A stretch of 56,828 nucleotides of DNA from a virus (IMGVR_UViG_3300025687_000053:1-56828), one strand, 5' to 3'. Numbered from the stretch's first letter, positions 4,428 through 54,790 are shown. A program made the numbers and translations. Notes: generated from the letters alone by a model not told the origin.

Positions 4428-4784
4428 ATGGAACGAACTAAGAAGAAATTTACCCGTACAAAGAAGGCAGATAAACCAACCTTCACCCGTACCAAAAAGA
4501 AATCTGGTTTCGTACGAACCAAGAAAAAAGAAGTACCACCCATTCAGATCCGGATTAAAGGTGAAATGACTGAGGACAGCCCAATGCCTACTGGAATGTT
4601 CAAAGGAGAGCGCGTTGGGGATATGTGGCCTGAGTATTTATATCGTATCTATAACGACGGCATGTGTACGCCTAAATTGAAACGGTACATAGAAACAAGG
4701 ATGAAAGATATAGAAGAACAAATCCAAGAAAACAAAAACAACCATAATCGGGAAATGCGTAAGTTGCGGGGAGGTAAGAAATGA
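4428..4784 (+). CDS. Protein with four N-terminal RTKK repeats plus a DUF3820-like domain
   Basis: MERTKKKFTRTKK...FTRTKKK...FVRTKKK; MPTGMFKGERVGDMWPEYLYRI resembles the MPFGKYKG...P..YL.W domain. Confidence 0.7.
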   Translation: MERTKKKFTRTKKADKPTFTRTKKKSGFVRTKKKEVPPIQIRIKGEMTEDSPMPTGMFKGERVGDMWPEYLYRIYNDGMCTPKLKRYIETRMKDIEEQIQENKNNHNREMRKLRGGKK

Positions 4785-5392
4785 GAAAACTAAGCCCTGA
4801 ACAAATACAACACAACACCAAGCAATGGGAAGACGTTTGGAAGATTCATCTGTTTAAAGAATTACAGAAAACAAACCCCCGTATATATAAGGTAATAACA
4901 GCCCCCAATTTCAAAGGCACAAAGTATAACACCATACCGACCAGCGCATATCTGTTCGGTGGTGTAGGTACTGGTAAAACGGTTGAGGCAATCTGGATGT
5001 TAATAGAGTGGACTCGTATGCGCATTATGAATAGCCAACCGATAAAAGGATTGGGCTTGTTTGTTACTTGCGAAGAATTGTTCCAATCCATACGGAACAC
5101 ATACAACAAAAAGAGTGACGTTACAGAACAAACTCTATTAGACCTTTATCAAGAAGCGGAAATGTTGGTGATTGATGATTTAGGCGTAATGAATACCAGT
5201 GATTGGACGTATAAGATACTGTACCAGATTGTTGATTACCGTTACAGCAATTTCCTGCCCACCATTTACACCAGCAATATGAGTCTGGCTGACTTGGCTA
5301 AGGTACTGGGGGATGATAGAATACCAGACAGGATACAACATGACTGCAAAGATAATATATATAATTACAAACGTAAATCAAGGAGGATGTAA
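4781..5392 (+). CDS. DnaC/IstB-like AAA+ helicase loader
   Basis: Walker A GGVGTGKT, Walker B LVIDDLG, TIYTSN, DRI.DRI. Confidence 0.88.
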   Translation: MRKLSPEQIQHNTKQWEDVWKIHLFKELQKTNPRIYKVITAPNFKGTKYNTIPTSAYLFGGVGTGKTVEAIWMLIEWTRMRIMNSQPIKGLGLFVTCEELFQSIRNTYNKKSDVTEQTLLDLYQEAEMLVIDDLGVMNTSDWTYKILYQIVDYRYSNFLPTIYTSNMSLADLAKVLGDDRIPDRIQHDCKDNIYNYKRKSRRM

Positions 5393-5393
5393 T

Positions 5394-6089
5394 ATGAAAA
5401 CAAATGATTTAATAAAAGAATACAACGCTAAGATTTACGAGGCTATACATGGTCAGGGCAAGTTGACAACGCAATCGGTTAAAGATGTTTTAAAAGATTT
5501 TGCAAGTGCGTTACTCAAACCATCAGACAAGCAAGAGAAAAACAACGAGGAGGAGAAGAATGTAAAATGTGATAACTGGAATAACTGTCCTGCGCTAAAG
5601 GATAGCTGTTGTTATTCTCTAAATAGTAATAGATATGGGTGCTTCAACCCACCCACAGACCATAATGTTGACGTTAACAAAGCCGAAAGGAATTGTAAAA
5701 CTTGTGGTGATTCAGGATTATATTGTGTTTACATACCAAATGGTCAAGGTGGATGTAAAGTTTGGTTTAAATCTAAAGCCGAAAGCAAACCCGAAGTGAA
5801 GGAGGTTATAGGAGGCTTTGCAGAGGGGAATTATTCTTGTAAATGTATTAACTGTGGAGATATATTTCAAGGAAATAAAAGGGCAGTTCAATGCAAGCCG
5901 TGTGCTTTAAAAGTTAGCGCAAAGGATAAGGAAGTCAAGTTGAGTAGTATACATTCCACTCTTGTTGATTTAAAGTGTGGCGATACTGACGTAGAAAAAG
6001 CCTTATCGGATATAACACAAATTATTGACTCTTTTCACCCCAAAGGAACACAGGTAATAACCATTAAAATTAAACTATGGAATACGTAA
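5394..6089 (+). CDS. Cys-rich patchwork hypothetical protein
   Basis: Several CxxC/CC modules; start taken at MKTND. Confidence 0.6.
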   Translation: MKTNDLIKEYNAKIYEAIHGQGKLTTQSVKDVLKDFASALLKPSDKQEKNNEEEKNVKCDNWNNCPALKDSCCYSLNSNRYGCFNPPTDHNVDVNKAERNCKTCGDSGLYCVYIPNGQGGCKVWFKSKAESKPEVKEVIGGFAEGNYSCKCINCGDIFQGNKRAVQCKPCALKVSAKDKEVKLSSIHSTLVDLKCGDTDVEKALSDITQIIDSFHPKGTQVITIKIKLWNT

Positions 6090-6340
6090 CTGAAATATTA
6101 CAAGCAAGAATCTCAACACATCTAGCTCAAATGAACAATTGGACTAGTAAAGGTAATATAAGTATGGTGAATCAATGTCAAGAAAAGATAAATGAGCTAT
6201 CAAAAGCCATAGAAATGCTTGAAAATGTTACAAGCGAGGAACACAAGCAACCAAACATATTAGACTACATGGCTAATGGCGATACTGATTGGGAGTTGTA
6301 TGCAAAGGCTCTTGAAAAATATTGTAAAGTGGATGCGTGA
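6077..6340 (+). CDS. Hypothetical protein
   Basis: ORF track; overlaps the previous gene. Confidence 0.6.
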   Translation: MEYVTEILQARISTHLAQMNNWTSKGNISMVNQCQEKINELSKAIEMLENVTSEEHKQPNILDYMANGDTDWELYAKALEKYCKVDA

Positions 6341-6359
6341 TAAAATGACAAGGGAATGA

Positions 6360-6492
6360 TAACGTTGAGTATAAGAAACGTAGCGTTTTGAAATACTGAA
6401 CATCAAAAACTTACAAAAGTAAAATTGAAATAGAAAACTTAATATTAACCACTGATGGAGCTATGTTTTTTTATACATTGTTACCGCCAGTT
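6360..6492. repeat. attC-like imperfect palindromic recombination site
   Basis: TAAC at 6360; GTATAAGAAACGTAGC (6369-6384) pairs with GCTATGTTTTTTTATAC (6460-6476) leaving one extra base; then GTTA at 6480. Confidence 0.55.
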
Positions 6493-6505
6493 AATTATTA
6501 AAATT

Positions 6506-6757
6506 ATGTACGGAGATACAAGACAGAAATACGTGAGGCTTAAAGAGTATGACCAAATAATCATATTCCCTCAGATAATTGAACACAGCACATTTAGACA
6601 CCTAGAGCCAGTGAGCGCAGGATTTTGTAGCGTTGGTGATGATATGATAATTTGTAATGGTGGAAGCGTATCTTTAAACTTAGACAGTAAGGAAGATGAT
6701 AGTTTCGTAGCTACAAAACAAGTATTTGGATGGGATGCCGCAGAAGCTCTGCTCTAA
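6506..6757 (+). CDS. Hypothetical protein in a cassette-like unit
   Basis: Flanked by the inverted pair GTTACCGCCAGTT (6480-6492) and AATTGGCGGTAAC (6756-6768). Confidence 0.7.
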   Translation: MYGDTRQKYVRLKEYDQIIIFPQIIEHSTFRHLEPVSAGFCSVGDDMIICNGGSVSLNLDSKEDDSFVATKQVFGWDAAEALL

Positions 6758-6838
6758 TTGGCGGTAACATCTGTATAAACAACAGTAAACGATTGCGCAA
6801 ACGCATAATGAGATAAATTAACCAAATAAAACAGTACT

Positions 6839-6967
6839 ATGAAAACAGCTGCAATACTCTTTATCTTCCTCACATCCTGCGCCACTCTAGACAGACATTA
6901 TAATCCTGAGACGGAGGTAAAGAAGATCGAGACAAAGGAGTTCGACCAGATAATTGAAAAATTTTAA
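6839..6967 (+). CDS. Small putative lipoprotein (42 aa, MKTAAILFIFLTSCATLDR...)
   Basis: Read by hand. Short signal peptide ending in the lipobox LTS-C. Confidence 0.55.
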   Translation: MKTAAILFIFLTSCATLDRHYNPETEVKKIETKEFDQIIEKF

Positions 6968-6987
6968 ACTATAGAGAAAAAGTAGTA

Positions 6988-8570: not shown

Positions 8571-8930
8571 ATGTACAAAATCACAAAGGAGTTTCATTTT
8601 TGTGCCAGTCACGAATTGTTACACCTACCAAAGACGCACCCGTGTTACAGGTTACACGGACACAACTACGTAATCAAAGTTGAACTGCAAGCCAAGAAAC
8701 TTGGAGCCGATGGGTTCATTGTTGATTACAGGAAATTAGACTGTATTAAACAGTACATCGACCAGAAACTAGACCACCGCCATTTGAATGACGTGTTGCC
8801 AGAAGGTGTTAGACCAACCGCAGAAACAATGGCTAAACACTTCTATGAAAGGTTTAAACTATTAGTGCCCGAATTGAGTGCTGTGGAAATAAGTGAAACG
8901 CCTAAAACAAACGCAAGATATGAACCCTAA
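8571..8930 (+). CDS. queD: 6-carboxy-5,6,7,8-tetrahydropterin synthase
   Basis: F.ASH.L, C.RLHGHNY, LDHRHLND, PTAE, ETP. Confidence 0.95.
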   Translation: MYKITKEFHFCASHELLHLPKTHPCYRLHGHNYVIKVELQAKKLGADGFIVDYRKLDCIKQYIDQKLDHRHLNDVLPEGVRPTAETMAKHFYERFKLLVPELSAVEISETPKTNARYEP

Positions 8931-9681
8931 AACATTAATCAGTTCCGCAAAGGACTATAAACACACCACAACCCCCGAGGAGGATGGGTTGTTTATTAGT
9001 GAATTTTTTTATGATACTGTACAGGGTGAGAACTTCGTTGGCGTTCCCAGTGCTTTTCTACGGTTAAAGAATTGTCATATTGGTTGTACATGGTGCGACA
9101 GTGCCGTTACTTGGAAGCGTGGTGTGAAATGGAACCACCGACAGCTCTTCCGTAAAATAGAGGAAGCTGGTTTGATAGGTAAGTTTAAGAACGGGCAGCA
9201 TTTGGTTATTACAGGAGGCGCCCCGTTGTTACAGCAGGAACAACTGGTGAAGTTCATAGACGCCTTTATAAATAGGTATCATTTTAAACCTTATATAGAG
9301 ATGGAGAATGAGTGCACCATTATGCCAACACCGACGTTGTTCTTATTGGTAGACCGTTGGAACAATTCACCCAAATTAGAATTAAGTGGTGTTAACAAAA
9401 CAAAGACTTATCACCCACGTATCTTAGAACGCATGTCCCAACAACCAAATAGCTATTTCAAGTTTGTTGTAAGCAGTCAAGGGGACTGGGATGAGATACA
9501 AACAAAGTACATTGACCTCGGTTTAATTAAGAAAGAACAGGTAGTGTTGATGCCTTTGGGAGATAATCGTAAAAAAATACGCCAAATACAAGAAAAAGTT
9601 ATAGGACTCTGCATCGTTAATGGAGTTCGATATAGCCCGCGTCTCCATATAGATATATGGGATATGAGCACAGGAGTTTAA
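8920..9681 (+). CDS. queE: 7-carboxy-7-deazaguanine synthase (radical SAM)
   Basis: SE.F.TVQGE, CHIGCTWCD, VITGG.P, SPKL, KFVV, RLH. Confidence 0.93.
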   Translation: MNPKTLISSAKDYKHTTTPEEDGLFISEFFYDTVQGENFVGVPSAFLRLKNCHIGCTWCDSAVTWKRGVKWNHRQLFRKIEEAGLIGKFKNGQHLVITGGAPLLQQEQLVKFIDAFINRYHFKPYIEMENECTIMPTPTLFLLVDRWNNSPKLELSGVNKTKTYHPRILERMSQQPNSYFKFVVSSQGDWDEIQTKYIDLGLIKKEQVVLMPLGDNRKKIRQIQEKVIGLCIVNGVRYSPRLHIDIWDMSTGV

Positions 9682-9722
9682 AACTGACTTTAAAAAAAAT
9701 TTTAAAAAAGTTTGTCAAAAAC

Positions 9723-9753
9723 TTGTTTTTTGATTTTACGGGTATTAACTTTG
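9723..9753 (+). promoter_or_regulatory. Bacteroidota-type promoter (TTG ... TAACTTTG)
   Basis: TAnnTTTG at 9746-9753 with TTG about 20 nt upstream, preceded by A/T tracts. Confidence 0.65.
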
Positions 9754-9844
9754 TGAATACAACGGTGGACGAAAATGGACAACCTGAAACCACCGCAAAA
9801 CGATAATTAAAACGAAAACATAACATTAATTAAAATTTAAAGCG

Positions 9845-10603
9845 ATGAAAAAAATCAAATTGACGCAACTGAAAAAGGCAGGTAAAGAATTGAACGCATT
9901 ACTGTTTGATGATGACAACCCACAAATCGAAATCAAAGCAAGTGAAGAAGAACTAAGTGCACAAATCCTACAAGCGGTGAATGAGTGCCTTGACCCAGAT
10001 GACGAGGTCAGCAAAGCGACGCAAGAAGTGATTGACGCCCTTCAAGAAAACGCAAGTGAAGAACCAGCTGAGGAAGCAAGTGAAGAACCAGCTGAGGAAG
10101 CAAGTGAAGAACCAGCTGAGGAAGTTGATATGGACGAACTTGCCCAAGAGATTATGGATTGTGAAGATGTTAAAGACTTGCGCAAAATGTGTAAGGAGTA
10201 CGTCGAACTTGAATCTTGTCGTAAGGGTATTGGCATCAAAAAGATTGAAAAACTACGTAACGAAATGCTTGAGGCACTTGGTTACGAGGTTGAAGACTCG
10301 ACAAAGGAAGCCCCAAAGGGTACGGACAAAAAAGAGAAGGGTACAGGTAACAAAAAGGAAAAAGGTGCCAAGAAAGAGAAGAAAGAGGGAGCTGGAACTA
10401 CTGAGTACGGACACCGCAAAGGAAGCCAAAGTGGACAAATTGATGAGGTATTACTTGGTGCCAAGAAAGCCCTTAGCCTGGATGAAATTGCTGAGGAAGT
10501 TGGTTGTACTGCCGGAAGGGTTAAGAACCACATAGCCCACCTTGAAAAAAACAAAGACGTTGAATTCAAATTGGTTAACGATAAATACAGAATCGTTAAG
10601 TAA
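9845..10603 (+). CDS. Acidic low-complexity protein with a C-terminal winged HTH (putative DNA-binding/regulator)
   Basis: ASEEPAEE repeats, Lys-rich linker, LSLDEIAEEVGCTAGRVKNHIAHL HTH. Confidence 0.75.
   Translation: MKKIKLTQLKKAGKELNALLFDDDNPQIEIKASEEELSAQILQAVNECLDPDDEVSKATQEVIDALQENASEEPAEEASEEPAEEASEEPAEEVDMDELAQEIMDCEDVKDLRKMCKEYVELESCRKGIGIKKIEKLRNEMLEALGYEVEDSTKEAPKGTDKKEKGTGNKKEKGAKKEKKEGAGTTEYGHRKGSQSGQIDEVLLGAKKALSLDEIAEEVGCTAGRVKNHIAHLEKNKDVEFKLVNDKYRIVK
10052..10123 (+). repeat. Perfect in-frame tandem repeat, 3 x 24 bp (GCAAGTGAAGAACCAGCTGAGGAA)
   Basis: Directly visible; encodes ASEEPAEE three times. Confidence 0.95.
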
Positions 10604-10604
10604 T

Positions 10605-11594
10605 ATGAGAAACATCGTTAAAGCGGAAGTGTTGTGGACGCGCAAGTGTCCACTTCACTGCCATTATTGTAGCATGGCTACGCAGGAAGCAAACTCCTAT
10701 CCAATTGAGTTATGGAAAGAGGGGTTGCTTCAATTGCGCAAATTGGACTGTAAATTTATAGCCATTTACGGTGCCGAACCGACAGCCGACTTCGATAACC
10801 TGTGTGAGTTTGTAAAGACCGCTAGCCTTATGGGGTTTGACATGACACTGATTACAAGTGGACAAGGTGGAAACATACCTGAGAAACTTAAACTATTATA
10901 TGAAGCAGGTTTACGCTCTTTAACTATGTCTTATGACATTGTACCATTAGACCCCAGTAGTGCTATCAAGAGTAGCAAGGCGCTAAAGACTTTGAATTAT
11001 TTTGGTAGTTTAGGACCTGTAGATAATTTGGCGATCTGTACCACGTTAACCCGCAAGAACTATACCAAGTTATATGATAGCTTTAAAGTGTTGGCAGAGC
11101 TTGGCTATTGGACGTTTTTTGACATTATTCACCACGACCGAGGACAAGAGGGCAGCAAAGTAAAAGGACGTGATGAAGAATTAATGTTTACAGAGGATGA
11201 TATTCTACCCTTAATCACCCAACTGCAACTCCTTAAAACAAACAGGGACAGACTAAAGATACACGCAAGTGATGGTTTTCTTGATTACCTGTGCAACAAC
11301 CCTGAACTCTTTTTAACATACGATTGGAACTGCGCTAACAGTAGAAGTTTCCCAAGTTGGGTGACCATAGATTGTGATGGACAGGTGTACCCATGTGATG
11401 ATTTCCAACCGAAATCAATTGGTGTACCATTCCACCAAATAGCAGACCGTTGGGAAACGTTCCAAGACGCATGGCGTACGAAAGTATCAATAGACTGCCC
11501 TGGCTGTATATGGAACACCCATATCGATGCCAACCTTATTAAAGAGGGGGCAGTTAGTATTAACCAATATATCCATAAAGACAATGGCAGATAG
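10605..11594 (+). CDS. Radical SAM protein with a SPASM/Twitch-like C-terminus
   Basis: CPLHCHYC (CxxxCxxC), GAEP, C...IDCDGQVYPCD...CPGC. Confidence 0.88.
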   Translation: MRNIVKAEVLWTRKCPLHCHYCSMATQEANSYPIELWKEGLLQLRKLDCKFIAIYGAEPTADFDNLCEFVKTASLMGFDMTLITSGQGGNIPEKLKLLYEAGLRSLTMSYDIVPLDPSSAIKSSKALKTLNYFGSLGPVDNLAICTTLTRKNYTKLYDSFKVLAELGYWTFFDIIHHDRGQEGSKVKGRDEELMFTEDDILPLITQLQLLKTNRDRLKIHASDGFLDYLCNNPELFLTYDWNCANSRSFPSWVTIDCDGQVYPCDDFQPKSIGVPFHQIADRWETFQDAWRTKVSIDCPGCIWNTHIDANLIKEGAVSINQYIHKDNGR

Positions 11595-12267
11595 AGATAA
11601 CAGCGTATTGTTGTTTAGTGGTGGGATTGACAGTTTTGTAGCCTACCATTATTTGAACAAACCGAAAACCGTTTATTTTGACGTGCAGAGTAGGTACACC
11701 CAACGGGAACTAGAGGTGGTGAAAAGATTAATACCCAGTACAATCATTGACCACAGCCTAGATTTTAGTAGCCGTGAGATAGGAGTAAACGCCTATATCC
11801 CATTTAGAAACCTTTTACTGGCAGCCCAGGCAGCCAAGTATGCCGATACTATCTACATAGTAGGTATCAAGGGGGACAACGTCAGTGACAAGAACGAAGA
11901 AATCTTTGAAGAGTTCAGTACCCTGTTAACCAAACTGGAGAATAGACCAATCAAAGTCTTAAGCCCATTTTGGGAAAAAACTAAATCTGAAATCATTAGT
12001 TGGTATCTAAACGATCACAAAGGGAATCTTGGAATCTTGTTGCAAACCATTAGTTGCTACGCGCCAAAGGCTACTGGCTCTTACTGTGGACGATGTCCTA
12101 GTTGTTTCCGTAAATGGACTGCTTTAAGGGCTAACGGGATTAACGTACCATTTTACAACGATGCTCTATTAGATGAGTATTACAAGGCTGCTAAAAAAGG
12201 TATTTACATTAAAGAAAGAAACGATGAAATTATCAGGGAAATCGATGCGTATCGCAGTGGACATTGA
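11584..12267 (+). CDS. queC: 7-cyano-7-deazaguanine (preQ0) synthase
   Basis: SGGIDS PP-loop, YIPFRN, SCY...CGRCPSC zinc site. Confidence 0.9.
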   Translation: MADRDNSVLLFSGGIDSFVAYHYLNKPKTVYFDVQSRYTQRELEVVKRLIPSTIIDHSLDFSSREIGVNAYIPFRNLLLAAQAAKYADTIYIVGIKGDNVSDKNEEIFEEFSTLLTKLENRPIKVLSPFWEKTKSEIISWYLNDHKGNLGILLQTISCYAPKATGSYCGRCPSCFRKWTALRANGINVPFYNDALLDEYYKAAKKGIYIKERNDEIIREIDAYRSGH

Positions 12268-12532
12268 TGGTATTTTAACCAATGAAACTGAAGGATACGA
12301 TTATCAAAACCGCACACCCAACCAAGAGAACATTGATACAGTGAACAGGATATATGACCACGGACATATCGTGGTCTTGTTCACCAGTAGATTTGGAGTT
12401 GACCTACACATCACAAAAAGGTGGCTGAAGGAACATGGTGTACAGTATCATAAGTTGATATTGGATAAACCCCAGTACGATATTTTCGTAGACGATAAAG
12501 CGTATAACTCATTTAAAGAATTAGGATTATGA
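12245..12532 (+). CDS. Minimal HAD-superfamily phosphatase
   Basis: VDIDG motif I, FTSR, KP..D.FVDDKA motif IV. Confidence 0.85.
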   Translation: MRIAVDIDGILTNETEGYDYQNRTPNQENIDTVNRIYDHGHIVVLFTSRFGVDLHITKRWLKEHGVQYHKLILDKPQYDIFVDDKAYNSFKELGL

Positions 12533-13431
12533 AAAAAGTATATAATGTGACGCCAGGAGAAATCAATGATTTCTTGGCCGAATTTGATCACGAAGATACT
12601 ACTGTGTACGGAGTGCCCAACGGGGGACTTATGTTAGCAGCGTACCTAACTGAAGCCGAAGTGGTATTTACTGTAGAAGATGCCGACATCATATTAGACG
12701 ACCTGATTGATAGTGGTGTAACTATGGAACGATATAAGGCTGAATGGCCTGATAAACAGTTTAAAGCTATGTTTGATAAACGTGACGGTCAAGCGGATGC
12801 TAATTTTCAAGGACAATGGATTGTGTTTCCTTGGGAACGTAGCCACCCAAATGGTGAGAAAACTATTGAGGACAATATCGTACGAATACTCCAGTACATT
12901 GGTGAAAAACCTGAACGCGATGGTTTGGTTGGTACACCTGACAGGGTGGTTCGTATGTACAGTGAAATCTTCCGTGGATACGATCCTGCACATCGTCCAA
13001 AGGTGACCATCTTTAAAAACGGTGCAGACGGTTTGGATTACAATCAAATGATAACAGACGAGGGAAGTTTCCACAGCCATTGTGAACATCATATGGTTCC
13101 GTTCTTTGGCAAATATTACTTTGCATACATACCCAGTAGAAAAGGAAACATCTTAGGACTGTCTAAGGTGGCGCGTATTGTTGATTATCATGCGGCTAAG
13201 TTACAGATACAGGAACGACTCGGTCACGATATTGTGGAGGACTTATGGAAAGCCCTGTGTACGGGAGCAGATGAACCGTTGGGGATGGCGTTAATGATGC
13301 GTGCGGAACATCTGTGTAAAACGATGCGGGGTGTTAAAAAGAAAGGACAAGCCACTACCACCACATTGAAAGGCGTGTTCTTAACTGAGCCAAAAGTCAA
13401 ACAAGAATTTCTAAACAGTTGTAAGATATGA
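12529..13431 (+). CDS. folE: GTP cyclohydrolase I fused to an N-terminal purine phosphoribosyltransferase-like domain
   Basis: C-terminal half TPDRV, SHCEHHMVPF, GLSK.AR, QER, HLCKTMRG. N-terminal half GVPNGG, LDDLIDSG.T, WIVFPWE. Confidence 0.92.
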   Translation: MKKVYNVTPGEINDFLAEFDHEDTTVYGVPNGGLMLAAYLTEAEVVFTVEDADIILDDLIDSGVTMERYKAEWPDKQFKAMFDKRDGQADANFQGQWIVFPWERSHPNGEKTIEDNIVRILQYIGEKPERDGLVGTPDRVVRMYSEIFRGYDPAHRPKVTIFKNGADGLDYNQMITDEGSFHSHCEHHMVPFFGKYYFAYIPSRKGNILGLSKVARIVDYHAAKLQIQERLGHDIVEDLWKALCTGADEPLGMALMMRAEHLCKTMRGVKKKGQATTTTLKGVFLTEPKVKQEFLNSCKI

Positions 13432-14315
13432 AAATCTATATTGCAGGTATTCACGGGGTTTATGAGACCAGTCAAATAAACCAGTTACTGACGAACAGTT
13501 TGGTGACTTTCTGGGAGAAACCAAAGTTTCACAAATGTCACAGGGAACAGGACATCTTCCTAGACTCGGGAGCCTTTAGTGCTTGGAGTCGTAAAAAATC
13601 AATTGACTTGAAGGATTACATCCGTTACGTAAAAGAGAATGAGGAGTGGATTACTGTGTACGCCAACCTTGATGTCATTGGTAGTGCCAGGAGGTCTTGG
13701 CGTAACCAAATGAAAATGGAAAAGGCTGGGTTAAAACCTATGCCCGTATTTCACACAGAGGACGAGCCTTACTGGTTAGAAAAGTGCGTCAATGAGTACG
13801 AGATGTTTTGTATTGGAGGTATGGCTAAAGGGTTTAGCAGAAAGGAGCGACAGAGCTTCCTAGATCGTTCATTTGAACTGGTTGAGAAGTTAGGTGGATT
13901 GGACCGTTGTAAGATACACGGATTTGGAATGACCAGCTTTGATTTGATGTGGAGATATCCTTGGTATAGTGTGGACAGTACCACGGCAGTGCTTGTCAGT
14001 GGTATGGGTGGGATAATTGTTCCACCACGTAGAAACGGTGAATGGCGTTATGACTTACCACCACACGGAATATCAATAAGTGAAAAGTCACCCAGCGCCA
14101 AAAAGTTGAATGAACATTACACAACTGTTCCCCCAACTGTTAAACAAATGATTGACGATTACCTAACTGAAAACGAGTACAGCTTTAAAGACTGTGCCGA
14201 GAGTTACCTACCAAGGAGGGAATTGAATATTATTTATTACAATACCCTGCAAGATGCAATAACTGAAAAAGGTTCCAACTGGGACGATACTAACAAACTA
14301 ATTCCATTGCTATGA
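13428..14315 (+). CDS. dpdA: DNA 7-deazaguanine transglycosylase (TGT-like)
   Basis: FLDSGAFS, NLDVIG, PVFH, GG, IHGFG, WYSVDS; adjacent to the preQ0 genes. Confidence 0.82.
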   Translation: MKIYIAGIHGVYETSQINQLLTNSLVTFWEKPKFHKCHREQDIFLDSGAFSAWSRKKSIDLKDYIRYVKENEEWITVYANLDVIGSARRSWRNQMKMEKAGLKPMPVFHTEDEPYWLEKCVNEYEMFCIGGMAKGFSRKERQSFLDRSFELVEKLGGLDRCKIHGFGMTSFDLMWRYPWYSVDSTTAVLVSGMGGIIVPPRRNGEWRYDLPPHGISISEKSPSAKKLNEHYTTVPPTVKQMIDDYLTENEYSFKDCAESYLPRRELNIIYYNTLQDAITEKGSNWDDTNKLIPLL

Positions 14316-15323: not shown

Positions 15324-17945
15324 ATGGAGGGATTTTTTACAAAGAAAGAAGTCAGCAGTGAGAACATGCATAGGGGCAAAGCCCTGACCTGTGTCTCCTG
15401 TGGTCGTTACCAACAATGTGAGTCTCCAAAGATGGAGGCAACTGGTAACTTTGGCAAAGGTATTTTGAATATCCTAATAGCCCCAGATAGTTCAGAAGAT
15501 AGTAGGGGGAAACCATACTCGGGAAAGTATGCTAGAACATTGCGTAAACAGTACACTGAGTTCGGTATTGATATGGACGAGGATTGTTTAAATACCTACG
15601 CCGTCAGGTGTAAAGGTGACGAAGTACCTACGTTTGAGGAAGTGACGCAGTGTCGCAGATTTATTATGCAACTGATAAAAGACCGCCAGCCCCGTGTAAT
15701 ATGTGTCTTCAGTGAACATGGTTTGTACAGCCTTATTGGACATCGTTGGTTGAAGGACTTTGGAAATTACCTGAAATGGATTGGCTACCAAATACCAGAC
15801 CAAGACTTCATGGCTTGGATATGTCCAATCGTTATGCCCAAACTGAGTGAAGACAACCCGATATTTGACCTGTACTTTAAACTCCATTTAGAAAGGGCTG
15901 TACAGAAGGTTGATATGCCTGTACCAGTTTACAAAGAACCCGAGTTCATATACCTTGAAGATGACCTTAGTGTGTTGGAAACTTTGAAGACTTTTCGTAT
16001 TAGTTTTGATTATGAAACTACTGGATTAAAACCACACGGGAAAGGACATAGGATTGTATGTGCAAGCGTAGCACCGAACCCCGACCAAGTGTATGTCTTT
16101 ATGATGCCAAAAACAAGACGCAAACAACGCCCGTTCATTAAGTTGTTAAAACGTAAAGACGTATTGAAGATGGCGTATAACATGAAGTTCGAAGATACGT
16201 GGTCTTTCGTACGGTTAAAGACAAGGATTAAAGGTTGGTATTTAGATACGATGTTGGGTGTACACATTTATGACAACCGTCCAGGGACTAAATCCTTAAA
16301 GTTTCAAACCTACGTACGACTCGGGATTGTAAACTATGATGAGGAGGTGTCCCCATATTTAAAGGCAGACCCCAAAGATGGCAACGCAATAAACAAAGTG
16401 CCAGAATTGATTAAAACACCTGAGGGTCGTAAAATGCTGATGAAATACTGTGGGTATGATAGTATCAACGAACATCGCATTGGTAAACTAATTGAAGCCC
16501 CAATGAAGGACGCAAGAAAACAAGGTGATTTGCCTGTACCACAGTATAGCAATTTCGAGGAGGCTTACAAACTATTACACCACGGAACACTCGCGTTAGC
16601 CGAAGCAGAAAGACAGGGGATGCGGATTGATTTAGAGTACTGTGATAAACAAAAGAGGAAGTTGACTCGTAAGATTGAAAAGTACGAATCCAAAATATAT
16701 GGCAGTTCGTTCTACAGACATTGGCAACATACTCTAGGGGGGGCAAGTCCTAATCTAAACAGTGACGACCAATTGGCTAAATACCTGTACGACGTTAAGA
16801 AGATTGAACCTAAAAAGCTGACAGAGCACGGGCGAGGTAGTACAGACGAAGAAGCTTTAAAGATGTTAGAGATACCTGAATTGAATTGGTTGATTAACCG
16901 TGGCAAGTTGATAAAGGTTCGGGATACATACTTGGATGCATTTGTACGGGAACAGGTTGACGGGGTGTTACATCCGTTCTTTAATTTACATATCGCTAGA
17001 ACGTACCGCAGCAGTAGCAACAAACCTAACTTCCAAAACATACCGAAACGGGACTTAGAGACGATGAAATTAGTGCGTAGAGCTATATATCCCAGACATG
17101 GTCACCAGTTAATGGAACTGGACTATTCAGGTATTGAGGTAGCCATTGCAGCCACCTATCACAAAGACCCGACGATGATTAAGTACATCACCGACCCGAC
17201 CACGGATATGCACGGGGATATGGCGCAACAGATATTTATGATTGGCGATTGGGATAGGAAGAATAAGAAACATGGTTATCTAAGAAGCGCTACAAAGAAC
17301 AGTTTCGTATTCCCCCAGTTTTATGGAGACTATTGGCGTAATTGCGCTATGAATTTTTGCGGGAATTGGATAGGCGTACCAAGTGAGGGCAGTAGGTTTA
17401 AGAAGGGGGTTGGTGTTGAAGTGTTTGAGGGTGTACATATGACAGACCATTTAATTGAAAACGGTATTAAATCATACGCCCAATTTGAGAAACATATGAA
17501 AGACATTGAAGATTCATTTTGGGGAGAACGGTTTCCTGTATATGCCAAATGGAAAGAGAAGCATTACAACCGCTATTTGAAACGTGGTTACGTGTCATTT
17601 CATACGGGGTTTGTATGTGGTGGGATAATGGGTAAGAATGATGTCATTAATTACCCAGTACAAGGAGCAGCGTTTCATTGTTTGTTGTGGTTGTTTTGGA
17701 AGTTAACGGAACGGATGAAAGACCTTAAGATGAAAACCAAGTTAATTGGACAAATACACGATGCTATCGTTTTAGATGTACACCCAGATGAATTAGAGGA
17801 TGTGTATAGATTAGCCAAACAGGTGGGAATTGATGAATTAAGACGCACCTTCCCTTGGATAAATGTACCTCTTGAAATGGAAGCTGAGTTGTGTCCTGTC
17901 GATGGTAGCTGGGCTGAAAAAGAGGACTATTTTATTGAGTGTTAA
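15324..17945 (+). CDS. polA: Family A DNA polymerase with an N-terminal UDG-like domain and 3'-5' exonuclease
   Basis: CVSC...RC...C family-4 UDG-like N-terminus; exonuclease DYETTG, YNMKFE, YD; RSSSNKPNFQNIP, motif A DYSGIE, motif B R..TK..F...YG, NYPVQG, motif C IHDA. Confidence 0.93.
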   Translation: MEGFFTKKEVSSENMHRGKALTCVSCGRYQQCESPKMEATGNFGKGILNILIAPDSSEDSRGKPYSGKYARTLRKQYTEFGIDMDEDCLNTYAVRCKGDEVPTFEEVTQCRRFIMQLIKDRQPRVICVFSEHGLYSLIGHRWLKDFGNYLKWIGYQIPDQDFMAWICPIVMPKLSEDNPIFDLYFKLHLERAVQKVDMPVPVYKEPEFIYLEDDLSVLETLKTFRISFDYETTGLKPHGKGHRIVCASVAPNPDQVYVFMMPKTRRKQRPFIKLLKRKDVLKMAYNMKFEDTWSFVRLKTRIKGWYLDTMLGVHIYDNRPGTKSLKFQTYVRLGIVNYDEEVSPYLKADPKDGNAINKVPELIKTPEGRKMLMKYCGYDSINEHRIGKLIEAPMKDARKQGDLPVPQYSNFEEAYKLLHHGTLALAEAERQGMRIDLEYCDKQKRKLTRKIEKYESKIYGSSFYRHWQHTLGGASPNLNSDDQLAKYLYDVKKIEPKKLTEHGRGSTDEEALKMLEIPELNWLINRGKLIKVRDTYLDAFVREQVDGVLHPFFNLHIARTYRSSSNKPNFQNIPKRDLETMKLVRRAIYPRHGHQLMELDYSGIEVAIAATYHKDPTMIKYITDPTTDMHGDMAQQIFMIGDWDRKNKKHGYLRSATKNSFVFPQFYGDYWRNCAMNFCGNWIGVPSEGSRFKKGVGVEVFEGVHMTDHLIENGIKSYAQFEKHMKDIEDSFWGERFPVYAKWKEKHYNRYLKRGYVSFHTGFVCGGIMGKNDVINYPVQGAAFHCLLWLFWKLTERMKDLKMKTKLIGQIHDAIVLDVHPDELEDVYRLAKQVGIDELRRTFPWINVPLEMEAELCPVDGSWAEKEDYFIEC

Positions 17946-19309: not shown

Positions 19310-19786
19310 ATGAACTATGAACGAGATGTCGAGATAGACGAAACCGCATTGGATGTGGAATGGTTAAACCAACCTGCACTTGCATTACGGTATGGGCGCA
19401 ACTGGGCGAACCTCAAAAAACAGGTAGCTCTCAAAGAAGAGGAAATTAAAATCACTCGCAGTGAGTTAATCAAAGAAGCCAACGAGACATTGGATAAACC
19501 AACTGGTCCGAACGTGGAAGCTTACTACAGAGAGCACAGTAAGCACAAAAAGTTGAAACAACAACTGATTGAACTGGAATATGACTGTGACATAGCGTTG
19601 ATTGCCAAACAGGAAATCAGCCACAGTAGAAAAGTAGCGCTGGAAAACCTTGTACGGTTACACGGACAGAACTACTTTGCTGGTCCAAGTATTCCAAGGG
19701 ACTTGACACGCGAGGCAGAACAACGCCAGTCACAACAAGATAGCGACGCAAAGGTTGCGCGCACATTTAAACGAACGAAAAAGTAG
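19310..19786 (+). CDS. Coiled-coil protein, possibly a UvsY-like recombination mediator
   Basis: IDETALDVEW..QP N-terminus, helical body, position before SSB and RecA. Confidence 0.55.
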   Translation: MNYERDVEIDETALDVEWLNQPALALRYGRNWANLKKQVALKEEEIKITRSELIKEANETLDKPTGPNVEAYYREHSKHKKLKQQLIELEYDCDIALIAKQEISHSRKVALENLVRLHGQNYFAGPSIPRDLTREAEQRQSQQDSDAKVARTFKRTKK

Positions 19787-21092: not shown

Positions 21093-21428
21093 ATGAATGT
21101 ACTTAGAAATAAGAACAGTACAAACAACGGTAAGAGATTAGTTGGGGGATACGTCCCCCAACATCTCTATCAAGCTCTGTATTTAAAGAGCTTAGCCGAA
21201 GGGGTGTCTATTAACCAGTTAGTAGAAAAATCCCTTACAGAGACCGTCGGTGACATTGTCACTATTCCCGAAATGGTTAATAAGATTATTGACCGCGCCA
21301 ATCACAGTTACCGCAACTTGAATACCAATAGCAAACGGAAATTCAGAAGCGGACTGCGTGCGCAACTAACTAACAAAAAAGTTGACGAGAGTATTATCGA
21401 TGAAATCATTAACGGTATTAAGTTATGA
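21093..21428 (+). CDS. Ribbon-helix-helix-like DNA-binding protein
   Basis: VGGYVPQHLYQAL...AEGVSINQLV. Confidence 0.55.
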   Translation: MNVLRNKNSTNNGKRLVGGYVPQHLYQALYLKSLAEGVSINQLVEKSLTETVGDIVTIPEMVNKIIDRANHSYRNLNTNSKRKFRSGLRAQLTNKKVDESIIDEIINGIKL

Positions 21429-23332: not shown

Positions 23333-23632
23333 ATGATGTTAATTAATGCACTGGAGATAGTGTTTGAATTTAGGCACTTTCCAGAAGAAGAATTAAGAAA
23401 CCAGTACCCAGACGCAGTGACAAAATTTAGTTATGATGATTCACGTGGAAATATTAGTGTCCGAACACTTAACAACAAAGAGGACGTATTTGATAATCCC
23501 CACAGGGTTTTGATTCTAAAGTATTTGCCTGAATGGTTTGATTTTAAATTGTTTCGAATATATCTAATCCAATACCTAACAAACGATGATAAAGACACTA
23601 ACGATACGAAACTTCCAGAGTCACAAGCGTAG
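23333..23632 (+). CDS. Hypothetical protein
   Basis: ORF track. Confidence 0.55.
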   Translation: MMLINALEIVFEFRHFPEEELRNQYPDAVTKFSYDDSRGNISVRTLNNKEDVFDNPHRVLILKYLPEWFDFKLFRIYLIQYLTNDDKDTNDTKLPESQA

Positions 23633-50985: not shown

Positions 50986-51459
50986 TTAGGCTTCTACCAA
51001 ACCCAGTTCTTCCAATACTGCTTGGCAAAGGTCTTCTACTTCTTCGTAGTCAGATGGTTCAATGTCCAGTTCCTTTTCTTCAATCACGTCTGATAACTCA
51101 TCGATATCAAGCGCCTGGATTGCTTCTACCTTTGCTTCATTGATTTTGTCTTCCATCCACTCTTTGTCATTCTTCTTAGCGTTGGCTACCTTTTTACCAA
51201 TAACCTCTGCGTATTCTTCACGAACCTTTTCGATTTCAGTTTTTTCGTTTGCAGCGTTGTTACCAGATGAAGCGTCCTCGTTTTTGGATTTTACTTTGGC
51301 TTTCAAATCACCACCAAACAATTGCTTATGGGATTTTACTGAACCGTCGGATAAACGATACGATATCTCACCTGTCCCGAAGTTTTTCTTCACTGTCTTT
51401 ACAGTTAATTCTTCGTCACCCACTTTTACAGGGTCACCAATTTCTAATAATTTTTTCAT
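50986..51459 (-). CDS. Acidic hypothetical protein with HeH/LEM-like modules
   Basis: REEYAEVIGKK segment and C-terminal ALDIDELSDVIEEKELDIEPSDYEEVEDLCQAVLEELG. Confidence 0.7.
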   Translation of the reverse strand: MKKLLEIGDPVKVGDEELTVKTVKKNFGTGEISYRLSDGSVKSHKQLFGGDLKAKVKSKNEDASSGNNAANEKTEIEKVREEYAEVIGKKVANAKKNDKEWMEDKINEAKVEAIQALDIDELSDVIEEKELDIEPSDYEEVEDLCQAVLEELGLVEA

Positions 51460-51510: not shown

Positions 51511-53025
51511 TTAAGATAGATACTTTCTTACCTTATTTAATGTCTCGCTGCTTCGCTTCTTATTACTTCCCTTCAAATACTTCTTACCAGCATAACAGGT
51601 AAGATCGACCGCTTCATCGTGGGCAGCGTTTGGAAACCCACATATCTCATCCAAATACTTCCTATTCCACGATCCCTGTACCAGCACAACACGACCTGCC
51701 TCTATGCGTGGTGACATATTTCGTAATTCAGTTTCTTTACTATCCTTCCTTCCCTCAATCTCTTTTACGTTTAAGTCTGTAAACTGACGTAACATTTGGA
51801 CGGTTGATTTACCACTCGCTTTCGGTTCTATGTGTATCATTGACCTGCTAGCCCTGTACCCATACTCCAGTGCCCAGTCATTGATGAACTTCACTAAATC
51901 GTGTATCTCCATATACACACTACGATAATCCAAGATATATACCTTACCATTTCTAAAGTACGTAGCCATTAAGCCCGTCGGGTCATTCTTAGCTGTCCCT
52001 GTACGTTTATTGACATTCTTCTTCTCTTCATACCCAGTATCAATCCAGAAGTGAACATGGGGTACGTGTGTGAATGATGTCTCTGCATCGATTACAGTAA
52101 ACCATCGACGCTTAATCATTCCTCCTTCTGGTGGTGTGGGGTCTTGTTGGAATTGGCTGTGGTAATCATACGTCCCTAGTTCGTCTTTCTTCTCGTCTAG
52201 GATCTCAGGTGACATACGTTTAGGATCCATTAACCCATTTACATAGTGCTTGCGTAATTCGGGTGGAGAGACGCTATTATTTAGTTCTGCTGGAAGATTA
52301 ATGTGTTTGATTATCCTTTTACCTTTTTTAGCCAATGTCTGTAGGTAGGCAGTACAGTCTAATTCATGTAGCCTTTGCATTATCAGTATATTGACTGAAT
52401 TACCTTTTTCAACTTCACGTGTAAACAGGGTCTTCATATGACGAATGGCTGCTTCTCTGTCTGGTTCACTTTCAGCCTTCTGTATATCCTGTAAATCATC
52501 CATCAATTTCACGTGGGCGTGTCTACCAGTAATTCCACTTCCTGTACTGGTACAATCACGCGTCCCGCCTTTGGTTGTTTCGTAGGCTCTCTTAGCACTT
52601 TTATCTCCACGGAGTACTACGTGTGGGAACATCGTCCTATACTTAGGAGAGACGATAATATCCCGTGTCTTCATTGCAGCCTCTATACTAAGTTCATTGG
52701 AGTGGGAACTACTAATGATTCTAACCGTAGGGTCGATAGCCCATAACCAAGCAGGGAACGATTGTAAGACGATTGTGGTCTTGGTACTCCCTGGAGGCAC
52801 GTTAATGATTAGGTCATACGGTTTCCTTTTACGGTTAATTATGAAATGACTGAGGTACTGCAACTCATCGCATATTACTTTGATATGCCAGTTATCTACC
52901 AACTCCTCTTGGACTATGGTGTCCCAAAAGGATAAAAAGAATTGGTAGAAGGATTGTTCGCAGGCTCTCTTCTCTATCTCTACCAGTATTTTATCTGCGG
53001 GTAGGTTTCGCAAATCCCTATTCAT
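51511..53025 (-). CDS. terL: Terminase large subunit
   Basis: INVPPGSTKT, TGRHA...MDD, IMQRLH..D, QFQQDP, IEPKASG, FPNAAHDEAVD. Confidence 0.93.
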   Translation of the reverse strand: MNRDLRNLPADKILVEIEKRACEQSFYQFFLSFWDTIVQEELVDNWHIKVICDELQYLSHFIINRKRKPYDLIINVPPGSTKTTIVLQSFPAWLWAIDPTVRIISSSHSNELSIEAAMKTRDIIVSPKYRTMFPHVVLRGDKSAKRAYETTKGGTRDCTSTGSGITGRHAHVKLMDDLQDIQKAESEPDREAAIRHMKTLFTREVEKGNSVNILIMQRLHELDCTAYLQTLAKKGKRIIKHINLPAELNNSVSPPELRKHYVNGLMDPKRMSPEILDEKKDELGTYDYHSQFQQDPTPPEGGMIKRRWFTVIDAETSFTHVPHVHFWIDTGYEEKKNVNKRTGTAKNDPTGLMATYFRNGKVYILDYRSVYMEIHDLVKFINDWALEYGYRASRSMIHIEPKASGKSTVQMLRQFTDLNVKEIEGRKDSKETELRNMSPRIEAGRVVLVQGSWNRKYLDEICGFPNAAHDEAVDLTCYAGKKYLKGSNKKRSSETLNKVRKYLS

Positions 53026-53722
53026 ATCTGAGTTTCTTACGTGCGACTTCCAACAGTACATTGAGTTCTTCTTCAGTAAGTGAGTTAATATCAATAGATG
53101 TTTTCACTTCCCCACTCATTTCAACCTTCTCTGGTTTCTTGTAACCCTGGAGGACATCAATCTGTTTCAATGCTTCAATACGGTTGTGCATTTTGACTTT
53201 GATGTATTCGATTTGGTGTAACTGTTTGTATTCATCCATACGGTATATGATTTTCGTATCGATGGTTTCAATGGCGTCTAAGATATCTGGGTTTTCATCT
53301 ACCAGTTCATTCCAGTCTTTTTGCTTGTACCAACCGTCTCGCAAACCAGCTATTGAAGCGTAGCCTATTTTGGCGTATTCCCTTAATTGGCGCTGGAAAG
53401 AAACCCCTGTTAAGAGTTCGAATTCTCCTCGTACTGCCTCGAGATATTGTCGGTTAAGGGTCACTCTAAGTTTTTTCGAACCATTATTATTCGCAGTCAA
53501 CCTACTCGCATTCGGCCATATTCTTAGATATGCGTTAGTAATATGGAAACCATTACACAGGTACTCCTTAATAAATGCTTTATCCCTCTCGTGTAGTTTC
53601 TCTTCTAGTTCTTGTAGTGTGTACTGCTGTTCGTTGTTGTTATTGGTTTCTGTGACTTTCACTTCACTCATATTTCCCTTTTTGGTACGTATAAGTTTCT
53701 TTTTCATTTTGGTACGTGTCAT
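53018..53722 (-). CDS. terS: Terminase small subunit
   Basis: FIKEYL.NG..ITNAY, KVKMHNRIEAL..I, KVEMSGEV; immediately upstream of terL. Confidence 0.82.
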   Translation of the reverse strand: MTRTKMKKKLIRTKKGNMSEVKVTETNNNNEQQYTLQELEEKLHERDKAFIKEYLCNGFHITNAYLRIWPNASRLTANNNGSKKLRVTLNRQYLEAVRGEFELLTGVSFQRQLREYAKIGYASIAGLRDGWYKQKDWNELVDENPDILDAIETIDTKIIYRMDEYKQLHQIEYIKVKMHNRIEALKQIDVLQGYKKPEKVEMSGEVKTSIDINSLTEEELNVLLEVARKKLRYE

Positions 53723-53760
53723 AATATTAGATTTTTTCTATTGTTTGACAATTATTTGTA

Positions 53761-53768
53761 CAAAGGTA
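53761..53768 (-). promoter_or_regulatory. Bacteroidota -7 element TACCTTTG (late arm)
   Basis: CAAAGGTA on the + strand in the divergent intergenic region. Confidence 0.55.
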
Positions 53769-53860
53769 ATGAATAGAAAATATCACTTTTTTGAAAATAT
53801 TTTTCATTTCACTTGACTTTTGATTTTCATTGTTGTAATTTAGTGAAACGATAACACACT

Positions 53861-53876
53861 AAAACCTGACGACATG
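53861..53876 (+). promoter_or_regulatory. Repeated early-gene start motif AAAACCTGACGAC-ATG (first of 5 copies)
   Basis: Further copies at 54084, 54415, 55353 and 55701, each ending 3 nt before an ATG. Confidence 0.75.
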
Positions 53877-54071
53877 ACAAACATTCAAACAATTATTAGC
53901 AAAGTAAGTAAAGGACAAGAAATCACTATTATTGGTACGGGTGAAACTGTTACTGGTAAAGTATGTAGCATTTGCACAATCAATGAGAGTATTGTGGTGT
54001 TGGATAATGTTACTAGACGCTTTCGTACCATATGCGCAGAAAACCTTCACACTATTAAAGCTATTGTATAA
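53874..54071 (+). CDS. Early hypothetical protein
   Basis: Preceded by the start motif. Confidence 0.7.
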   Translation: MTNIQTIISKVSKGQEITIIGTGETVTGKVCSICTINESIVVLDNVTRRFRTICAENLHTIKAIV

Positions 54072-54096
54072 TAAAAACCCTATAAAACCTGACGAC

Positions 54097-54363
54097 ATGA
54101 AACTACAAGACATTAAACAAGCAAACGAACTTACTGAAAAAGAAACTACTGTACTTGACCACCTTTACGAAGCATTAGCCAGTTACTTTGGTGAATTGTA
54201 TTCAGATGTTGATTGTATCGACATCAGTAAAGCAATATCAATGCCAATACCAACCGTGAAGGGTGTTGTTGGTAGTTTGGTTAAAAAAGGTATTCTTGGA
54301 ACATACGATACAGGCACTGGATTTGAAGTGGTTTGTTTTATTGACCAAGAAGAAATGGAATAG
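54097..54363 (+). CDS. Winged-HTH protein
   Basis: DISKAISMPIPTVKGVVGSLVKKGIL; start fixed by the motif. Confidence 0.7.
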   Translation: MKLQDIKQANELTEKETTVLDHLYEALASYFGELYSDVDCIDISKAISMPIPTVKGVVGSLVKKGILGTYDTGTGFEVVCFIDQEEME

Positions 54364-54373
54364 AATCACTTTT

Positions 54374-54407
54374 GGTGTGGTGGTGTAATAGTCGCCACAC
54401 CTTTTTT
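54374..54407 (+). terminator. Intrinsic terminator-like hairpin
   Basis: GGTGTGGTGG-TGTAATAG-TCGCCACACC followed by TTTTTT. Confidence 0.75.
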
Positions 54408-54427
54408 AACCCTTAAAACCTGACGAT

Positions 54428-54790
54428 ATGAAATACCCTAAAATCAGTATTAAAGAAATTAAAGCCATCGATCGTAGCCTTACAGACCAAGAGGAAGACC
54501 AATATGGTATGATTGATATTCCCGACCCACGTAATGAGGATCGGTACGAGAGCGCCAAGAATAAAGCAGAGCAAGGTGGTTTTGAGTTTTGCCCCTGTTG
54601 TGGTAAGGCGATCTCTACAAGCAACTTGTACATCTTTAGTGCGTATGGTGGTTGTGCGTACAAATACGATAACAAAGCCCTTTATAGTGACTGCTGGCTT
54701 ATGCCAATAGGTAGTGAGTGTGCCAAACGATTTCCAAAGGGATATATATTTGAATTGACTACTAATTTTGTAAGAACTAAAAAACGATAA
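54428..54790 (+). CDS. Zn-binding hypothetical protein ending in FVRTKKR
   Basis: CPCCGK...IGSECAK. Confidence 0.7.
   Translation: MKYPKISIKEIKAIDRSLTDQEEDQYGMIDIPDPRNEDRYESAKNKAEQGGFEFCPCCGKAISTSNLYIFSAYGGCAYKYDNKALYSDCWLMPIGSECAKRFPKGYIFELTTNFVRTKKR

Follow-up and report, generated by a model that had tools for sequence, protein, structure and literature searches.

T4 gp32 is described, in part of one account (PMC11551737), as recruiting UvsX, UvsY, gp59, and Dda. The LAST motif in its N-domain, Lys-Arg-Lys-Ser-Thr, docks on the acidic region of a neighboring gp32 molecule and resembles the protein's own residues that contact single-stranded DNA (ssDNA), as set out in part of PMC12893549, and RecO binds the last 9 residues of SSB (single-stranded DNA-binding protein) (part of PMC7913777). 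Here, we describe a short basic peptide, hereafter called the tag, that is carried by unrelated proteins of a tailed virus. It is best written hydrophobic-x-R-T-K(-K/P) and occurs in 13 copies in 8 proteins encoded by IMGVR_UViG_3300025687_000053, a virus record of 56,828 bases that was analyzed whole (the window). The tag is a real linear motif at the protein level, found across the clade and showing clear signs of function and of convergent spread. Docking onto the virus's own gp32-like SSB is the leading, if tentative, hypothesis for its role, and a DNA-binding arm is nearly its equal.

All of the peptides quoted in a first-pass annotation of the window were present where that annotation had placed them. 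The tagged genes, in map order, are as follows.

3630-4400, plus strand: initiator-like protein with an internal tag, FKRTK (4047-4061, in the string VFKRTKP), within a low-complexity stretch, KKQTKKVFKRTKPSKRENK
4428-4784, plus strand: ORF4428 (118 aa), with four tags in residues 1 to 34 (MERTK 4428-4442, FTRTK 4449-4463, FTRTK 4482-4496, and FVRTK 4509-4523) and a small C-terminal domain after them
19310-19786, plus strand: UvsY-like protein with a C-terminal tag, FKRTK (19766-19780), followed by Lys and the stop codon
21425-22507, plus strand: RecA with two N-terminal tags (MRRTK 21425-21439 and FSRTK 21446-21460), MRRTKKKFSRTK
22825-23331, plus strand: RuvC with an N-terminal tag, MKRTK (22825-22839, in MKRTKP), on an extension of ~24 aa preceding the catalytic Asp
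24894-25784, plus strand: SbcD with an N-terminal tag, MKRTK (24894-24908, in MKRTKKKTFKR)
53018-53722, minus strand: TerS with two N-terminal tags (MTRTK 53708-53722 and LIRTK 53681-53695), MTRTKMKKKLIRTKK
54428-54790, plus strand: ORF of 120 aa with a C-terminal tag, FVRTK (54767-54781), followed by Lys-Arg and the stop codon

The anchor residue is the initiator Met in five N-terminal copies (MERTK, MRRTK, MKRTK twice, and MTRTK) and elsewhere Phe (seven copies) or Leu (one copy). The recurrence noted in the first-pass annotation exceeds what shuffled proteomes yield on average. In the window proteome (73 gene calls, 18,599 aa), RTK was found 14 times, compared with 4.5 expected when residues were shuffled within proteins (maximum, 14 in 2000 shuffles) and 4.9 when they were shuffled in 20-aa blocks (maximum, 16). 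Twelve of the 14 were terminal (i.e., in the first 40 or last 12 residues, sizes picked after the data had been seen), compared with 0.9 and 1.7 expected under the within-protein and block shuffles, respectively (maxima, 5 and 7 in 2000). The whole-proteome count and a permutation control are independent of that choice of sizes. For the control, R, T, and K were counted in their five alternative orders; these occurred 2 to 9 times overall and 1 to 4 times at termini. Additionally, M, F, or L stood two residues before the Arg in 13 of the 14 RTK occurrences.

The same order specificity was found outside the window, in 80 related IMG/VR loci collected by an SbcD alignment search. Among 2865 unique ORFs from these loci, M-x-RT[KR] began 62 (0 to 17 for permuted cores), and the C-terminal form occurred 15 times (1 to 5 for permutations). 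A hydrophobic anchor preceded 16 of 24 C-terminal RT[KR] strings in the relatives but, of those within protein bodies, only 33 of 122 (binomial p 6e-5), and position x was Glu in 25 of 71 tags. These 71 tags used all six Arg codons (AGA 30, CGA 19, AGG 14, CGG 4, CGT 3, and CGC 1) and all four Thr codons at frequencies close to background, with a mild lean to A-ending Arg codons (CGA, 27% versus 15% background). In the window, every codon variant quoted earlier (CGAACT, CGTACA, CGTACC, AGAACC, AGGACT, and CGAACG) was verified, and no upstream nucleotide cassette or RNA operator common to the tagged genes was visible. Because the Arg and Thr codons vary and the tagged genes share no upstream nucleotide motif, selection acts on the peptide. 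By these sequence measures, the tag is a genuine short linear motif kept at the protein level, as the first-pass annotation had held from the codon differences among copies. A-rich bias near start codons, which had been raised there as another explanation, does not account for the tag, given the codon diversity together with the specific R-T-K order.

Homologues in other genomes also retain the motif. A search of 5.8 billion proteins with SbcD recovered 1973 homologues at E <= 1e-10. Among the best 119 of these 1973 (the window's own protein excluded), 79 start with M-x-R-T; Arg3 is present in 106 (i.e., M-x-R), Thr4 in 79, and Lys at position 5 in 63. The other 35,316 residues of the 119 proteins contain a single RTK. 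Conservation among homologues, on which the original proposal depended, thus holds; the description of the tag as phage-specific is not quite right, the motif being clade-wide instead. In the 80 related loci (unique proteins, M-x-RT scored in the N-terminal region), the tag was found in 32/68 SbcD, 31/66 RecA, and 8/15 window-type RuvC proteins. It was nearly absent from SSB (1/60), the N-terminus of UvsY (0/58), the N- and C-terminal halves of SbcC (0/66 and 1/57, respectively), and the clamp loader (0/50). A version one residue shorter, M-R-T-K, also occurs in relatives. The UvsY-like proteins of relatives carry the tag at the C-terminus, as in the window (e.g., KLMRRTK, KMTRTKR, KLRRTKK, and KLNRTK; pattern [L/M/I/F]-x-R-[T/R/K]-K), and some of their C-termini have no Thr (e.g., IMKRKK). 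Two distant relatives (L014 and G004, with RecA 44-47% and SbcD 27-29% identical) are without the tag. In a set of diverse RecA representatives (50% clustering), only 4 of the 97 N-termini that could be assessed were flagged as tagged, with 2 more among the unassessable rows, so the RecA tag is confined to nearer relatives. Judged from these comparisons, the tag characterizes a large clade of uncultivated phages. The co-occurrence of SbcD and RecA tags within genomes (21/9/11/24; Fisher p 0.003) ignores relatedness and was not used as evidence.

Misplaced start codons, another explanation considered at first, are excluded for two carriers and possible for two others. Between the RuvC ATG at 22825 and the catalytic Asp31 there are zero ATG, GTG, or TTG codons, and SbcD has no in-frame Met from the tag to the D-x-H motif (residues ~19-21); neither protein, therefore, can begin downstream of its tag. 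The RecA N-terminus is kept in homologues. On the window sequence alone, downstream starts are possible for TerS (Met6 and Met18) and ORF4428 (Met47). Pfam domains begin past the tags (RecA at residue 45, Terminase_2 at residue 45, and RuvC and Metallophos after their extensions), which bears out the earlier statement that the tags, whether terminal or in a linker, lie outside catalytic folds. In an AlphaFold2 model of RecA, the predicted local distance difference test score (pLDDT) is below 50 at residues 1-14 and 27-38 and the core is confident. Together with the domain positions, these low values place the tags on predicted disordered tails. The alignment of the window RecA to Escherichia coli RecA starts at residue 45, the usual bacterial N-terminal helix/strand being missing. 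A basic tail, F..(E/D)RKPKKR (22480-22507), is conserved at the RecA C-terminus, even in distant relatives without the N-terminal tag.

Unrelated proteins that occupy the same genomic position have also gained the tag. In relatives, the resolvase slot between RecA and the N-terminal half of SbcC is filled by several nuclease families, most of which have tagged members.

RuvC, two or three subtypes (PF02075 confirmed for L048 and L117; PF02945 not involved among them): tagged members
T4-type endonuclease VII (EndoVII), PF02945 (L013 and L007): tagged members
PD-(D/E)XK family PDDEXK_15, PF24608 (L060): tagged

In 38 of the 136 unique slot ORFs of >=100 aa (unrelated ones included), an in-frame Met among the first 45 residues begins M-(x)-RT. 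The nearest homologues of the window RuvC (64-72% identical, from phages found only via RuvC) start MKILALD and lack the 24-residue tagged extension. Outside recombination, the TerS of L064 starts MKRTKF, and the sole database homologue of the window TerS (P0272) starts MKRAKKK; none was found in IMG/VR. Further carriers are a Zn-finger ORF and a GIY-YIG endonuclease. The window shows a wider spread still, with tags on the linker of the initiator, on ORF 54428, and on the orphan ORF4428 with its four copies. On this comparison of sequences, the tag is a convergent acquisition of non-homologous enzymes, including at least four nuclease families, and this is the strongest argument for function. 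The portal protein (PF06381) of L095 (15327-16778) is tagged at both ends, starting MKRTT and ending MKRTK-stop, with a ~40-residue run of Glu, Asp, and Gln just before the C-terminal copy.

Some of the window's carriers are themselves poorly classified. The initiator-like protein matched PHROG 29280 on residues 5-113 and the O-like PHROG 678 on residues 63-254, with no homologue in IMG/VR; the composition of its low-complexity stretch points to a linker. The UvsY-like protein matched the Pfam UvsY family with an E value of 0.0025, below the cut-off, and domain scans found no family for ORF 54428-54790. ORF4428, whose stop codon overlaps the DnaC-like start at 4781, gave no homologue in two protein searches and belongs to no Pfam or PHROG family. 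In the ESM Atlas model of ORF4428, residues ~45-112 (4560-4784) align with small viral PF12843 (QSregVF_b/DUF3820) proteins with a row TM of 0.93; with a pLDDT of only 0.53 for the model and no sequence match in Pfam, the alignment is a lead only. Elsewhere, the PF12843 domain is fused to exonucleases and Rad52-like proteins.

A fixed residue order, a hydrophobic anchor, placement on flexible tails, and independent acquisition together resemble a linear motif that binds a hub. We tentatively favor the tag as a docking signal for one shared polyanionic hub, and we infer that the common partner is the virus's own gp32-like SSB, the best candidate.

19809-21089, plus strand: gp32-like SSB, candidate receptor (426 aa, net charge -46), with a basic N-terminus, MAKKTKKSAFKNKV

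According to this hypothesis, tags on flexible tails and linkers would tether RecA, the UvsY-like mediator, SbcD, the resolvase, TerS, the initiator, and the two small ORFs to a hub that sits on replicating phage DNA, for which the SSB with its charge of -46 is the candidate. The tag would work as the basic/hydroxyl LAST motif does when T4 gp32 docks onto its neighbor's acidic region. Clients would thereby be concentrated on SSB-coated ssDNA, the meeting place of recombination-dependent replication, branch resolution, and packaging.

Several properties of the SSB speak for this role: its AlphaFold2 model has a Zn/OB core at residues 28-245 plus two acidic helical C-terminal modules, Foldseek matched the model to the T4 gp32 core (1gpc, E 2.3e-6) and the RB69 core (1.3e-5), and it is the only strongly acidic protein in the conserved module. 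A single-sequence scan found no homologue of it, and relatives were recovered by their position beside RecA and SbcD. The first-pass annotation had listed the starts of the SSB and the SNF2 protein as weaker matches to the tag; both strings are real, but that of the SSB belongs to another conserved N-terminal motif, MAKK..S.FRGKV. The acidic modules (~290-350 and 370-426), confidently modeled, each end in DDY..EELAKAIAEEL.IDI, and the same module closes the ORF at 50986-51459 (minus strand), between TerL and the portal gene. ORF 9845-10603 is also very acidic, with ASEEPAEE repeats and a weak C-terminal helix-turn-helix. The SSBs of relatives (L001-L016, L022, and L026) have Cys-rich tails (CxxCxGxG repeats; C..C..WDDCIEAKE) and no helical modules. 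One relative's SSB ends DDIPF like bacterial SSB, and some clamp loaders end DDTPF or EEPAF. Some SSBs start MARTKRKSKF (L004:297-1523, L026:4018-5130, and L013:6397-7611), which after Met removal leaves ARTKRKS; this resembles the start of the histone H3 tail, presumably through a coincidence of basic composition.

We predicted a complex with ESMFold2 from three chains with custom alignments (the SSB and the clamp, with residues 1-45 of ORF4428 as the partner), a setup that differs from that of the calibration. The ipSAE scores were 0.06, 0.39, and 0.43 (median 0.39), compared with 0.02 for the best of 3 controls, a result classed as weak support. Runs agreed in at least 31% of contacts, and the partner pLDDT was at least 35. 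Replacing the SSB chain while retaining the clamp lowered the score to 0.02; the prediction thus lends no support to the clamp as partner, and this was not counted against clamp binding. Recruitment to a hub, as proposed in the first-pass annotation, remains the best reading, with weak computational support that extends, among the partners tried, to the SSB only.

Several observations weigh against the SSB as the receptor. In the calibration, the ipSAE mark was reached by 58/80 solved complexes and 2/110 mismatched pairs, but among scores reaching the mark at <=0.60 there were only 7 of the 80 solved complexes, plus both passing mismatches; a predicted complex scoring this low would, without good prior grounds for the pairing, be wrong more often than right. 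The score may also reflect charge alone, because the peptide is polybasic and the SSB carries -46. The SSB tail, unlike the tags, is not conserved, with helical modules in the window and Cys-rich tails in relatives. In raw counts, tags went together with an acidic C-terminus of the SSB (Fisher p 0.027; Mann-Whitney p 0.037; n = 59), but this association was lost in a phylogeny-aware independent-pairs test (median p 1) and is not evidence; the only 6 independent pairs split into 1.3 in the same direction, 0.5 in the opposite direction, and 4.3 with no difference. The portal and TerS are less obvious SSB clients than the recombination proteins are. The T4 polymerase, primase, and helicases interact with gp32, whereas their counterparts in the window have no tag; the polymerase (15324-17945) lacks RTK altogether and has only a loose internal MPKTRRK. 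Finally, DNA binding is common to all of the clients, and the partner could thus be DNA itself.

This last point leads to the closest competitor, a nearly as likely reading in which the tag is an autonomous nucleic acid-binding arm, i.e., a flexible basic/hydroxyl unit that, much like an AT-hook or the lambda repressor arm, grips the DNA backbone or groove and raises its carrier's affinity with no protein receptor. Such an arm would suit the clients, each of which handles DNA (RecA, UvsY, SbcD, the nuclease families, TerS, the portal, the initiator, the Zn-finger ORF, and the GIY-YIG endonuclease), and a receptor need not be postulated. Its Lys/Arg and Thr composition recalls the core LAST of T4, Lys-Arg-Lys-Thr-Ser, given in part of PMC12893549 as the ssDNA-contacting segment, and the conserved RKPKKR tail of RecA provides a second basic end on one carrier. 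However, the tag is missing from many DNA-binding proteins of the same module (0 or 1 of 50-66 for the SSB, SbcC halves, and clamp loader, as well as the window polymerase, primase, and helicases), and its R-T-K order is strict when set against permutations. The conserved hydrophobic anchor and the frequent Glu at x would also be unusual for a purely electrostatic arm, and ORF4428 has four tags but no recognized DNA-binding domain.

Docking onto a different hub is unlikely, although the client-specific distribution and the hydrophobic anchor do argue for a protein pocket. The hub could be a phage component (the RecA filament, UvsY ring, SbcC, terminase, portal, or a small conserved ORF) or a host protein such as an unfoldase, chaperone, clamp, or polymerase. 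TerS and portal clients would suit a hub linked to packaging, and the N-terminus of the UvsY-like protein is a conserved acidic segment, YE.D..ID...LD.EW. Against these points, no candidate has positive evidence here, and RecA is itself basic (pI 9.2).

Two further proposals are improbable. In the first, the tag would be the client code of a charge-driven, condensate-like DNA-processing compartment that pairs polybasic tags with polyacidic scaffolds on replicating DNA. The scaffolds would be three: the -46 SSB tail, in which there are two acidic helical modules; ORF 50986-51459, on which that module recurs; and ORF 9845-10603, which is acidic as well. The four-tag ORF4428 would serve as a multivalent cross-linker or competitive gatekeeper. 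The window phage seems to have more tags, and also more acidic modules, than its relatives. In the second, the tag would be a regulatory mark (a degron, a cleavage site, or a site of Thr/Arg modification) that jointly times or restrains potentially toxic DNA enzymes. Its placement at either terminus on exposed tails is degron-like, the invariant Thr, with its basic neighbors, is reminiscent of the sites of basophilic kinases, and the clients are rich in nucleases (SbcD, at least four resolvase families, and the GIY-YIG enzyme), but no kinase, ADP-ribosyltransferase, or dedicated protease was recognized among the scanned genes, which cover part of the proteome. The absence of any function is close to refuted: many window genes do begin MKK, tag Arg codons lean mildly to A endings, and the TerS and ORF4428 starts are unproven from this genome, but composition-keeping block shuffles and permuted orders reproduce neither the 12 terminal copies nor their order, C-terminal and internal copies are present, Arg3 and Thr4 are kept in SbcD homologues in which RTK is otherwise almost absent, and the RuvC and SbcD starts cannot lie downstream.

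If the tag is a docking signal, a five-residue code would wire recombination, junction resolution, and packaging to one hub in a large uncultivated phage group, and it would be portable enough for at least four unrelated nuclease families to have acquired it. Such a code would turn the common design around, since hubs usually carry the peptide and clients the pocket. A simple sequence rule would then predict the network membership of unknown ORFs, and the peptide would offer a handle for receptor pull-downs and for targeting cargo to phage replication sites. Should the tag instead bind DNA autonomously, it would be a new module of the AT-hook type in prokaryotic viruses.

The setting of these genes is a tailed-phage genome (TerS, portal, and a 1620-aa ORF within the structural arm). 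An exact 126-nt direct repeat forms the record's ends (4-129 and 56703-56828), which indicates that the record was assembled circularly or is terminally redundant, with a unique length of ~56.7 kb; an ORF running from 56528 to 326 spans the junction. The plus strand from 1 to ~26.6 kb encodes replication, DNA modification, and recombination functions: an SNF2 helicase, a primase, the O-like initiator, DnaC-like and DnaB-like proteins, a 7-deazaguanine cluster, and a DnaN-like clamp, along with a family-A polymerase, the clamp loader, UvsY-like protein, SSB, RecA, RuvC, and a split SbcC flanking SbcD. Structural and packaging genes occupy the minus strand (26.7-53.7 kb), with TerS last. There is no close cultured relative: the best INPHARED match to the polymerase is only 25% identical, and SbcD had no phage match in INPHARED at E <= 1e-5. 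Thirteen genome matches were contigs of metagenome-assembled genomes spread over many phyla and were uninformative for the host. The DNA-modification cluster is partly common to relatives G001 and G002.

8571-14315, plus strand: 7-deazaguanine cluster, comprising QueD-like, QueE-like, second radical-SAM, and QueC-like proteins, a HAD/isomerase-like ORF, GTP cyclohydrolase, and a tgt/DpdA-like transglycosylase

The split SbcC region (23586-26620) consists of the N-terminal ATPase half (23586-24641), a small ORF (24638-24907), SbcD (24894-25784), and then the C-terminal half, an order that is kept in relatives; homologues of the C-terminal half start near Met34-35 of the ORF at 25907. A 148-aa ORF without a family (22509-22955) shares 131 nt, in another frame, with the 5' end of RuvC, and either the overlap is real or the ORF is no gene.

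Full-text searches found no published description of the tag, with subscription-only literature and supplements outside their scope. We compared it with known classes of short peptides. The AT-hook core is Arg-Gly-Arg-Pro, and the lambda repressor has the N-terminal arm STKKKP. Like these, the tag is a short Lys/Arg-rich peptide with Ser or Thr on a flexible end, and those peptides act autonomously; however, the R-G-R-P core is missing from all 13 copies, the hydrophobic anchor and tolerated Glu are atypical, and DNA binding by the tag is putative. In BRC-like FxxA peptides, Phe-x-x-Ala inserts into the core of a neighboring RecA/Rad51. F-x-R-T is only loosely alike, and a conserved Y-x-G segment beside the RecA core is a better candidate for a polymerization strand. 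The monopartite nuclear localization signal, K-(K/R)-x-(K/R), is bound by importin in nucleated hosts; strings such as KRTKK fit this pattern, but the genome is of the tailed-phage type.

Clamp-binding motifs and PIP boxes are closer in their distribution. One such motif occurs at the N-terminus, the C-terminus, or a linker of unrelated DNA enzymes, archaeal resolvase and Mre11 included, with the consensus QL[SD]LF for the clamp and Qxx[LIM]xx[FY][FY] for the PIP box. The tag is placed in the same three ways on unrelated DNA enzymes; however, no copy fits either consensus, and the window polymerase is untagged. The hubs formed by SSB tails (the E. coli SSB C-terminal peptide, SSB-Ct, and the T4 gp32 C-domain with Dda) likewise gather many DNA enzymes on ssDNA via one short peptide. 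There, the peptide is on the hub and the folded pocket is on the client, whereas here the common peptide is on the clients; moreover, some relatives also retain a classical DDIPF-type SSB end.

The likeness to LAST is that of a short basic and hydroxyl peptide on a flexible terminus of a phage DNA metabolism protein, in a virus whose SSB core is gp32-like. LAST, however, is on the SSB itself and drives self-cooperativity, whereas the tag is on many other proteins (with M-x-RT in only 1/60 SSBs), and the SSBs of the clade have their own N-terminal motif, MAKK..S.FRGKV. The tag also has a fixed order, a hydrophobic anchor, and a single Thr. Against the LAST formula (Lys/Arg)3(Ser/Thr)2, as given in part of PMC12893549, the K/R-rich tags with one Thr (KRTKK and RTKKK) are similar but not 3+2. 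The tag is therefore not a member of the LAST, SSB-Ct, clamp/PIP, or AT-hook classes, and it would work most like LAST and like recruitment by SSB tails and clamp motifs.

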